Below, one piece after another: positions 30,695-32,099 of a stretch of DNA of 64,000 nucleotides. This DNA is from Escherichia coli (lineage in GTDB: Bacteria; Pseudomonadota; Gammaproteobacteria; Enterobacterales; Enterobacteriaceae). The stretch is from assembly GCF_041886205.1 (NCBI RefSeq), contig NZ_CP169029.1. One strand, written 5' to 3'. Position 1 is the first letter of the stretch, and the number at the start of each line of letters is the position of its first letter. The notes under the pieces are model-generated. The model did no database searches, was not told the DNA's origin, and saw only the letters and a program-made list of their open reading frames with translations. The position numbers were made by a program, and so were the translations under genes.

Positions 30695-31696
30695 TTAAAA
30701 TAACATTTGAGTCAAATAGCCCATCAAGATAGCCATACCTAATATAACGGTCAGGAATGCAGCTATCATCGGCATTCTGAACATTGATTTAAGCAATATC
30801 ACTTCCGTCAAACTTGCGCCGGCACTGCCGATGATTAATGCCATTAATGCTCCCAGACCCATTCCTTTTGTCATCAAAACAGATGCCAGAGGGATAACTG
30901 CCTCTGCCCGGATATATAGCGGAATACCGACAACGGCGCTCAATGGGATGGCGAAGGGATTATCTGCCCCTGCATGAGCGGCAATCCACGCTGAGGGAAT
31001 AAAGCCATAAATAAAAGAGCCTATTAATACCCCTAACAAAAGATATGGCAGTACATCTTTAAACTGTTGCAACGCATCTTTGGTGGCTAGTTTTATGGGA
31101 TTAATACTTACCACAGCTTTGGTACTGCAACAGTTAACTACGGGTTTCTCAATGGCTTTAGCCGCTGGACTACAACAACTCACTTTTATGGGCGTATATG
31201 TCGTTCCCGGCGAAGTTTTTGCTGGAGCACAACAATTTGCTGATGAGCTTTTACTGGCAATGATATGACGTTCAAACCCCAGAGAATCGAGGATAATACT
31301 GGCAAGAACGGAGACGCCGGCTGCGATAATCGCGTACAACAAGGTGACTTTCCAACCAAAGGTCATCCACATTAGTCCGACGATAATGGGATTAAGTAAT
31401 GGTGAAACAAATAAAAAAGTGAGAGTCGGACCAAACCCGGCTTTCGCTGACAACAATCCACGTAACATGGGTATTGTCGAGCAACTACAGAACGGGGTAA
31501 CGGCTCCCAACAGAGCAGCCAGGAGATAGCCTCTCCCTTTTCTGGCCCCCATCATCTGCTGGATTTTATGGTCTGGCACCTTTTGTCTTATCAGGCTGAC
31601 GCCGGCACTAATCACTATAAACAGCAAAGAAAGCTCGACGGCGAGAAACACAAACATCTCTGCGGCATCTTGCAGCATCTCAAGCCCACTACTCAT
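30695..31696 (-). CDS. arsP: ArsP-like permease (DUF318 family), about 333 aa, with TPFCSCS motif and three Cys-Cys dipeptides in a central loop
   Basis: Multi-TM ORF containing VTPFCSCSTIPM, the motif I recall as the ArsP signature TPFcSCSxxP; start set at the second Met (SD gagg 6 nt upstream); the ORF track starts 4 codons earlier. Confidence 0.65.
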   Translation of the reverse strand: MSSGLEMLQDAAEMFVFLAVELSLLFIVISAGVSLIRQKVPDHKIQQMMGARKGRGYLLAALLGAVTPFCSCSTIPMLRGLLSAKAGFGPTLTFLFVSPLLNPIIVGLMWMTFGWKVTLLYAIIAAGVSVLASIILDSLGFERHIIASKSSSANCCAPAKTSPGTTYTPIKVSCCSPAAKAIEKPVVNCCSTKAVVSINPIKLATKDALQQFKDVLPYLLLGVLIGSFIYGFIPSAWIAAHAGADNPFAIPLSAVVGIPLYIRAEAVIPLASVLMTKGMGLGALMALIIGSAGASLTEVILLKSMFRMPMIAAFLTVILGMAILMGYLTQMLF

Positions 31697-31719
31697 ACGT
31701 AACCTCATTGAATAAATCT

Positions 31720-31778
31720 ATATTTCCAGAATAATCGAAATGAGATTCAGATCAAGATATTTCTGGTATTATCGAAAT
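31720..31778. promoter_or_regulatory. Two 22-bp direct repeats in the divergent arsR2/arsP promoter region (candidate operator)
   Basis: atatttccagaataatcgaaat and atatttctggtattatcgaaat, 19 of 22 identical, 37 bp apart. Confidence 0.4.
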
Positions 31779-31802
31779 ATCAACCAGACAGAGGGGTGTC
31801 AC

Positions 31803-32099
31803 ATGCAGTTGGAAGAAGTCGCTAAAGCGCTGAAAGAGCTAGGTCACCCGACCCGTTTGTTCATATTTAAACATCTTGTCAAAGCGGGGGAACAAGGTTT
31901 GCCGGTCGGTGAGTTACAAAAGCAGCTTGGGATACCTGGCTCCACACTCAGCCACCATATCTCAGCACTGGTATCGGTAGGACTGGTCAAACAAAACCGT
32001 GAGAGTCGAACGCTGATGTGTGTTTCGCAATACGCAATGCTGGAAGCGATAATTGAATTCTTACGCGAGGAGTGCTGCGTAAATAGCAAAATTGCCTGA
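31803..32099 (+). CDS. ArsR/SmtB-family regulator, 98 aa, with C-terminal Cys-Cys pair
   Basis: Winged-helix ArsR fold (ELGHPTRLFIFKHL ... GSTLSHHISAL); lacks the CVC site of canonical ArsR; ends EECCVNSKIA; start at MQLEEV with GAGGGG Shine-Dalgarno. Confidence 0.7.
   Translation: MQLEEVAKALKELGHPTRLFIFKHLVKAGEQGLPVGELQKQLGIPGSTLSHHISALVSVGLVKQNRESRTLMCVSQYAMLEAIIEFLREECCVNSKIA

Follow-up and report, generated by a model that had tools for sequence, protein, structure and literature searches.

What do two divergently transcribed genes between arsC and a yhiS-like gene of Escherichia coli do, and how did they come to stand there? The genes, one for a regulator of the ArsR family and one for a permease of the ArsP family, lie in the 64,000-nucleotide stretch of contig NZ_CP169029.1 that was analyzed here (the window), in the acid-fitness and arsenic region of the chromosome. 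An initial annotation of this DNA had tied an ArsR-family regulator and a cysteine-bearing ArsP-family permease to arsenic genes, and profile matches and genomic linkage bear this out. Our analyses suggest that the pair is probably a self-contained sensor/efflux module for trivalent arsenicals with a preference for organoarsenicals, of which methylarsenite [MAs(III)] and reduced roxarsone are the most likely. They also indicate that the pair is ancestral at this site.

The divergent open reading frames (ORFs) were found where they had first been placed, those coordinates being the ones of the longest ORFs. The permease gene occupies 30695..31696 on the minus strand (333 amino acids from the start called by PGAP), and its longest ORF extends to 31708. 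The regulator gene occupies 31803..32099 on the plus strand (98 amino acids), with the PGAP start at 31803 and the start of the longest ORF at 31740. In strain wlxctx60, whose sequence is identical, RefSeq/PGAP labels the products "permease" and "ArsR/SmtB family transcription factor." Pseudogene status was rejected, given the intact ORFs, the strong Pfam matches and the low ratios of nonsynonymous to synonymous substitution rates (dN/dS).

The profile search against the ArsP/DUF318 families that the initial annotation had suggested gave a full-length match. The permease matched Pfam PF03773 (ArsP_1), which corresponds to the ArsP family 2.A.119 of TCDB, with an E value of 1.5e-52, residues 13-334 aligning with positions 3-293 of the 294-position model. 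We also compared it with a Campylobacter sp. ortholog (P0304) of ArsP of Campylobacter jejuni (CjArsP), which was picked for its arsP-arsR-acr3 synteny to stand in for CjArsP. The two proteins are 32% identical over their full length (E 5e-47), and Cys70 and Cys72 of the permease align with Cys65 and Cys67 of the ortholog. The clade of the E. coli protein is a distinct one and has a Cys-rich loop; the distant homologs of this protein are all annotated as "permease." The aligned cysteines are part of the sequence TPFCSCSTIP (residues 67-76, codons 31469..31498 on the minus strand), which is present as first reported and had been taken for a signature of ArsP. Of the full-length representatives of the family (28-60% identity), about 80% carry the pattern TPFCSCS(T/S/A)(I/V)P; TPFCSCS itself is invariant in the clade and conserved to at least 90% in a set of 85 family members, and both SaoE and the Cu/Zn exporters of the SO_0444 family share it (bioRxiv 10.1101/2022.07.06.499078). 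Being family-wide, Cu/Zn exporters included, it does not qualify as an ArsP-specific signature and is a mark of the family rather than of the substrate.

An AlphaFold2 model of the permease built with 85 homologs had a predicted local distance difference test score (pLDDT) of 87.9 and a predicted template modeling score (pTM) of 0.84. It comprises two sets of four helices (residues 2-39, 52-83, 88-113 and 115-138, then a loop, then 200-232, 249-276, 281-302 and 308-332), a plan with which the hydropathy profile agrees. In the model, the second transmembrane helix (TM2) is discontinuous at TPFC (residues 67-70), and its repeat equivalent, TM6, is broken at YIR (residues 261-263). We propose that Cys70 and Cys72, placed by the model at the TM2 break, form a thiol substrate site; the cysteine pair of this motif is reportedly needed for transport by CjArsP. 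Among solved structures, no relative of the permease was found by sequence, and the best Foldseek match had an E value of 0.37.

The regulator matched the Pfam domain HTH_20 (E 3.9e-14) and the ArsR/SmtB metalloregulator model NF033788 (61.9 bits, cut-off 55). Its best match in the PDB was AfArsR of Acidithiobacillus ferrooxidans (6j05, E 4.7e-10), in which the ligands of As(III) are Cys95, Cys96 and Cys102. Cys91 and Cys92 of the regulator (codons 32073-32078) align with the Cys-Cys pair of AfArsR, and the six residues that follow are free of cysteine, so that the C terminus (...EECCVNSKIA) holds no further one. Lacking a third C-terminal cysteine, the E. coli protein has the pattern of SpArsR, a two-cysteine pattern to which the MAs(III) selectivity of SpArsR has been ascribed (PMC13236881, PMC11868830). 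Cys73, Cys91 and Cys92 were kept in all 54 homologous regulators examined. In comparisons with the Escherichia fergusonii and Salmonella alleles, dN/dS was 0.03-0.06 for the regulator and 0.03-0.08 for the transmembrane core of the permease; thus, both genes are under purifying selection.

The 106-bp region between the two starts (31697..31802, no strand) contains inverted repeats and promoter-like hexamers. Two operator-like sites, each overlapping a sigma-70-like promoter, were recognized: site 1 at 31720-31741 (ATATTTCCAGAATAATCGAAAT) and site 2 at 31756-31781 (GATATTTCTGGTATTATCGAAATATC), the latter with a perfect 8-bp inverted repeat, GATATTTC-N10-GAAATATC. Both are kept from E. coli to Aeromonas, whereas the flanking bases have diverged. 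Within the window there are two occurrences of the core motif versus 0.03 expected, and it is also found directly upstream of the permease gene in Photobacterium, Aliivibrio and Shewanella loci. From this conserved operator footprint we infer that the regulator controls both genes. An Rfam search found no RNA family within the permease-regulator region.

The genomic company of the pair connects it to arsenic. In E. coli, E. fergusonii and two Citrobacter species, the pair comes after arsC. In E. fergusonii the order is gor-dinQ-arsRBC, regulator, permease, treF. In Citrobacter (L004-L006, 2230-8092), arsRDABC, regulator and permease are cargo of a lambdoid prophage. In Buttiauxella the order is regulator, permease, arsC-arsB-arsR, arsH. 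A Salmonella Tn3/IS66 region carries arsRDABC, then arsH and the regulator, which are co-oriented with the regulator first, then a divergent permease; its arsH product scored 405.6 bits against TIGR02690 (cut-off 292). On enterobacterial plasmids, the permease gene is divergent from a regulator-arsH-sigma-arsD-arsA operon. More distant permeases stand beside arsenic genes as well, namely, a 37%-identical one that adjoins arsDA on a Staphylococcus plasmid and is accompanied by an ArsR of its own and the 32%-identical one at the head of the arsP-arsR-acr3 operon of the Campylobacter sp. Linkage to ars genes was thus seen in at least six independent genomic settings, a recurrence far above what chance would give with an operon of 5 kb in a genome of 5 Mb. 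In Aeromonas, the pair stands alone. Among 80 species-level homologs (about 50% identity, mostly from Vibrio, Shewanella and Photobacterium), the regulator is nearby in 61.

Some further observations concern these settings. The Citrobacter prophage cargo sits between replication genes (DnaT, lambda P) and the DinI, RusA and lysis genes. In Salmonella plasmid pN19S0949 (L098 2992-8038), the regulator-arsH-sigma70-arsD-arsA genes, with no arsB, diverge from the permease gene. At nine Vibrio loci (e.g., L070 6890-7492, minus strand), and also at L011 357-899, a gene for a sigma-70/extracytoplasmic function (ECF)-like protein with a Cys-rich C-terminal tail adjoins the PF03773 permease gene and may be an alternative regulator. 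In a plasmid collection, a homolog was present in 993 records, 466 of them from Escherichia and 198 from Salmonella, and the identity was 60-90% in 635. Many of the sampled plasmid entries came from chicken, duck, turkey or pig isolates, a tally made with no statistical test of host association.

As to inducer, substrate, energy coupling and role of the loop, we infer a scheme in which the two proteins act as one module. In the absence of inducer, a dimer of the regulator would occupy the two operators of the 106-bp region and repress both genes. A ligand of two thiols, with MAs(III) the leading candidate and reduced aromatic arsenicals further possibilities, would bind Cys91 and Cys92, at the position of the As(III) site of AfArsR but with no third cysteine, and release the repressor. 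The permease would then export the arsenical by way of Cys70 and Cys72 at the unwound center of TM2, and the Cys-rich loop may capture or hand over the substrate. Strain K-12, which lacks the pair, is reported to be sensitive to monomethylarsenite [MMAs(III)] and to be rescued by C. jejuni arsP (bioRxiv 10.1101/2023.01.09.523296), which fits this scheme.

Several observations weigh against this explanation. Co-oriented arsD-arsA-permease genes with no arsB were found at three loci, one in Craterilacuibacter and two in Endozoicomonas (L020, L039, L041), and point to inorganic As(III)/Sb(III) as the substrate of some clade members. The invariant Cys73 of the regulator could be a third ligand, in which case As(III) might be sensed, and about 20 of the 54 regulators, mainly from Vibrio, have a third cysteine four to eight residues past the pair, as does AfArsR. 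The best NCBIfam match of the permease is a Cu/Zn exporter family, albeit far under the cut-off. The characterized Campylobacter-type ArsP has no Cys-rich loop, and the Campylobacter protein compared here has a single loop cysteine. Finally, ars genes of the E. coli type lie within 8 kb of only about 7 of the 80 species-level homologs, a count made with E. coli-type queries, by which Acr3 and thioredoxin-type ArsC would be missed. What is conserved is thus the two-gene unit of regulator and permease by itself; its linkage to genes for arsenic resistance, though strongly enriched, is not universal.

The first of these points raises the possibility that the pair senses and exports inorganic arsenite or antimonite, supplementing ArsB as another As(III) pump that might work together with the ArsA ATPase. 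Because the arsD-arsA-permease operons, which include plasmid examples, have no arsB, they suggest that the permease may be the membrane partner of ArsA, and a proposal of ArsP-ArsA coupling is mentioned in a review (PMC6205960). In such a system, Cys73 might complete a three-coordinate site in the regulator; the roughly 20 homologous regulators with a third C-terminal cysteine share this feature with the As(III)-responsive AfArsR. However, the E. coli regulator has no third C-terminal cysteine, linkage to arsH points to organoarsenicals, and ArsB is already encoded at the locus, along with ArsDA in the present strain. In addition, CjArsP is reported not to extrude arsenite (PMC6205960). We consider an inorganic substrate unlikely.

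The NCBIfam search bears on another class of substrates, as the permease might export a soft metal (Cu, Zn, Cd or Hg) like SO_0444 of Shewanella, its loop acting as a metal-binding domain. Two models matched and no others: the SO_0444 Cu/Zn efflux family NF033936, at 106.1 bits with a cut-off of 300, and SaoE NF040736, at 84.9 bits with a cut-off of 325. The shared CSC motif, the resemblance of CC-rich loops to metal-binding segments, and the position of most marine homologs away from ars genes are all compatible with metal export. Nevertheless, the score falls so far below the equivalog cut-off that membership in the SO_0444 family was ruled out, and because Campylobacter ArsP orthologs also match this model, with 61-76 bits, the match does not discriminate between substrates. 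The regulator that accompanies SO_0444 is of the ZntR/MerR type (PMC3219624), not an AfArsR-type repressor, and the linkage that recurs is to arsH, arsC and arsDA and never to cop, czc, znt or mer genes. A soft-metal exporter is thus quite improbable. SaoE membership was likewise excluded by score and by the lack of SAO genes nearby.

Even less probable is a module directed at a different thiol-reactive substrate (reactive sulfur species, organotin or electrophiles, for example), with an incidental adjacency to ars. It could account for the module standing alone in about 90% of marine homolog loci and for a weak similarity of the regulator to BigR and YgaV (PDB 3cuo). The regulator reached 38.5 bits against the BigR/YgaV persulfide sensor model NF040642 (cut-off 155) and has no counterpart of the N-terminal sensing cysteine of that class, so this assignment was rejected, and the ars linkage in independent settings argues against coincidence.

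The second question, that of origin, was approached by comparing the arsC-yhiS interval across E. coli, as the initial annotation had recommended. Presence is variable: the pair was found at 80% coverage or more in 2,223 of 5,426 complete genomes (about 41%) and was absent from 59%. As arsD and arsA occur in only 255 of these genomes, the pair is not tied to arsDA. In K-12 MG1655 it is absent, in keeping with the initial annotation, and the gap between arsC and yhiS measures only 628 bp. The corresponding gap of the pair-less strain cq9 contains, in order, the left flank (window positions 30117-30423), a permease fragment, a regulator relic, and both of the repetitive extragenic palindromic (REP) elements that lie between regulator and arsC in the window. 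The permease fragment is 23 bp long and agrees with window positions 31049-31071 at 21 of 23 bases. Of the regulator gene, the last ~70 bp are left as the relic; the alignment including the REPs covers 211 bp at 80% identity (E 1e-53), which does not permit reading the relics as unrelated sequence. The two remnants lie at 5361-5383 and 5414-5484 of the cq9 locus (L002), in an unannotated region. The left flank and the regulator relic recur in the K-12 gap (L100), likewise unannotated. With relics in the right order and E. fergusonii carrying the pair at the same site, the K-12 state is a deletion scar, and the pair is ancestral next to arsC in Escherichia and was lost by deletion in K-12-like lineages.

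The elements that had been thought to bound an insertion are real, with one qualification. The 578-bp AT-rich spacer (30117-30694) has a GC content of 30-35%, as described. The "REP cluster" (32094..32174, plus strand; recognized by pattern match and by alignments with cq9 and K-12) amounts to one degenerate element, which overlaps the stop codon of the regulator gene, and one complete element (32139-32174). As boundaries of a cassette they fail, because pair-bearing and pair-less strains alike have both REPs and the initial 307 bp of the spacer; the part of the spacer missing from the pair-less strains is 30424-30694. A recent insertion between arsC and yhiS, for which one could cite the absence from K-12 and from most complete genomes, the GC content of the pair (43-50%, below that of arsB and arsA) and the mobility of related copies on plasmids, in the Tn3/IS66 region and in a prophage, is contradicted by the same-site pair of E. 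fergusonii, by the ordered and correctly oriented relics and by the shared flanks, and we regard it as highly improbable.

In the window, the order of genes is hdeA, hdeB, yhiD, dctR, slp, the yhiS-like ORF, the spacer, the permease gene (minus strand), the regulator gene (plus strand), arsC, arsB, arsA, arsD, arsR. A terminator-like hairpin (30500..30528, minus strand), found in a consensus scan only, lies downstream of the permease gene, about 170 bp from its stop codon, in the pair-specific part of the spacer. The ars operon of the window is of the arsR-D-A-B-C type (33992-36123), compared with arsRBC in K-12. Upstream of arsR, two Rfam AgrB matches on the minus strand (36675-36758 and 36909-36992; 103 and 106 bits) represent the agrA/agrB small RNAs antisense to dinQ. 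The yhiS-like ORF (28893-30116, minus strand) is intact, with 407 amino acids, a GC content of 27-38% and no NCBIfam match; the K-12 copy of yhiS is a pseudogene split by IS5.

The Cys-rich, hypervariable loop of the permease lies between TM4 and TM5 (residues 138-212; 31061..31285, minus strand), as delimited by the AlphaFold2 model and the alignment, and is disordered in the model over residues 145-199, with a pLDDT of about 50 over residues 150-199. The three CC dipeptides noted initially are present (NCCAP, VSCCSP and VNCCST, with cysteines at 155/156, 174/175 and 189/190). The transmembrane cores of close homologs are nearly invariant, but the loop ranges in length from about 45 to 120 residues and is not alignable; thus, the exact motifs are not conserved, and what is kept is a Cys-rich composition. 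Of the 80 species-level homologs, 79 carry two or more cysteines in the loop (mean, 5.8); a CC dipeptide, most commonly in the context S-C-C-S, is present in 56. The dN/dS of the loop is about 0.3, well above that of the core, and a tandem-repeat search found no repeats that account for the variation in length. Which side of the membrane the loop faces bears on any role in substrate capture. Positive-inside counts favor the periplasm under a simple eight-helix model; the parity of the cysteine count (50 even, 30 odd, in non-independent sequences) is not decisive. By analogy with the vicinal-Cys sites of ArsD, the loop might be a built-in capture domain and the permease clade an alternative partner of ArsA, which together would make an unrecognized pump architecture, an idea that we hold to be doubtful.

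ArsP-type permeases and two-cysteine ArsR repressors are already known. What the present analysis adds is the deletion scar of K-12, the prevalence of the module in about 41% of E. coli together with its heavy carriage on plasmids, and a Cys-rich loop that is conserved in composition and hypervariable in sequence, which poses a mechanistic question. K-12 is the standard host for work on arsenic resistance, yet the module is deleted there, and this loss can explain why the module has remained unstudied and bears generic annotations only. If methylarsenite or reduced roxarsone is exported, organoarsenical resistance would set about 41% of E. coli apart from K-12. If, moreover, the loop captures substrate and the permease works with ArsA, presence or absence of the module would set natural differences in sensitivity to methylarsenite released by other gut or soil microbes. 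Arsenical feed additives may have coselected plasmids with close paralogs, as suggested by the 993 plasmid records and by the many sampled entries from poultry and pigs.

Among known systems, the families of SO_0444 and SaoE share the Pfam family and the CSC motif with the permease but differ in that its scores lie under their cut-offs, in the class of regulator, and in the presence of metal-resistance or SAO genes, none of which are found near the E. coli pair. Closer is ArsP of C. jejuni (TC 2.A.119.1.1), which Chen et al. reportedly described in 2015 as a methylarsenite and roxarsone(III) efflux permease. The Campylobacter proteins have in common with the E. coli permease the PF03773 domain, the 4+4 helices, the Cys pair of TPFCSCS, an adjacent ArsR and ars linkage, and the arsP-arsR-acr3 operon of our comparator is the arrangement reported for CjArsP. 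The differences are the identity of 32%, the one loop cysteine of Campylobacter ArsP versus 2-14 and CC pairs in the E. coli clade, and the regulation: Campylobacter arsP is cotranscribed with acr3 and a CVC-type (R773-like) ArsR gene, whereas the E. coli regulator gene is transcribed divergently and its product belongs to the AfArsR/SpArsR type. AfArsR, which responds to As(III), is the best solved relative of this regulator, with a vicinal Cys pair at the same C-terminal position. SpArsR of Shewanella putrefaciens 200, said to have been described by Chen, Nadar and Rosen in 2017 as an MAs(III)-selective ArsR and compared here by description only, resembles the E. coli regulator in having the vicinal pair and no third cysteine. 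In contrast to both, the E. coli clade has the additional invariant Cys73. Orthologs of SpArsR control arsP and arsH, the partners that also accompany the regulator here.

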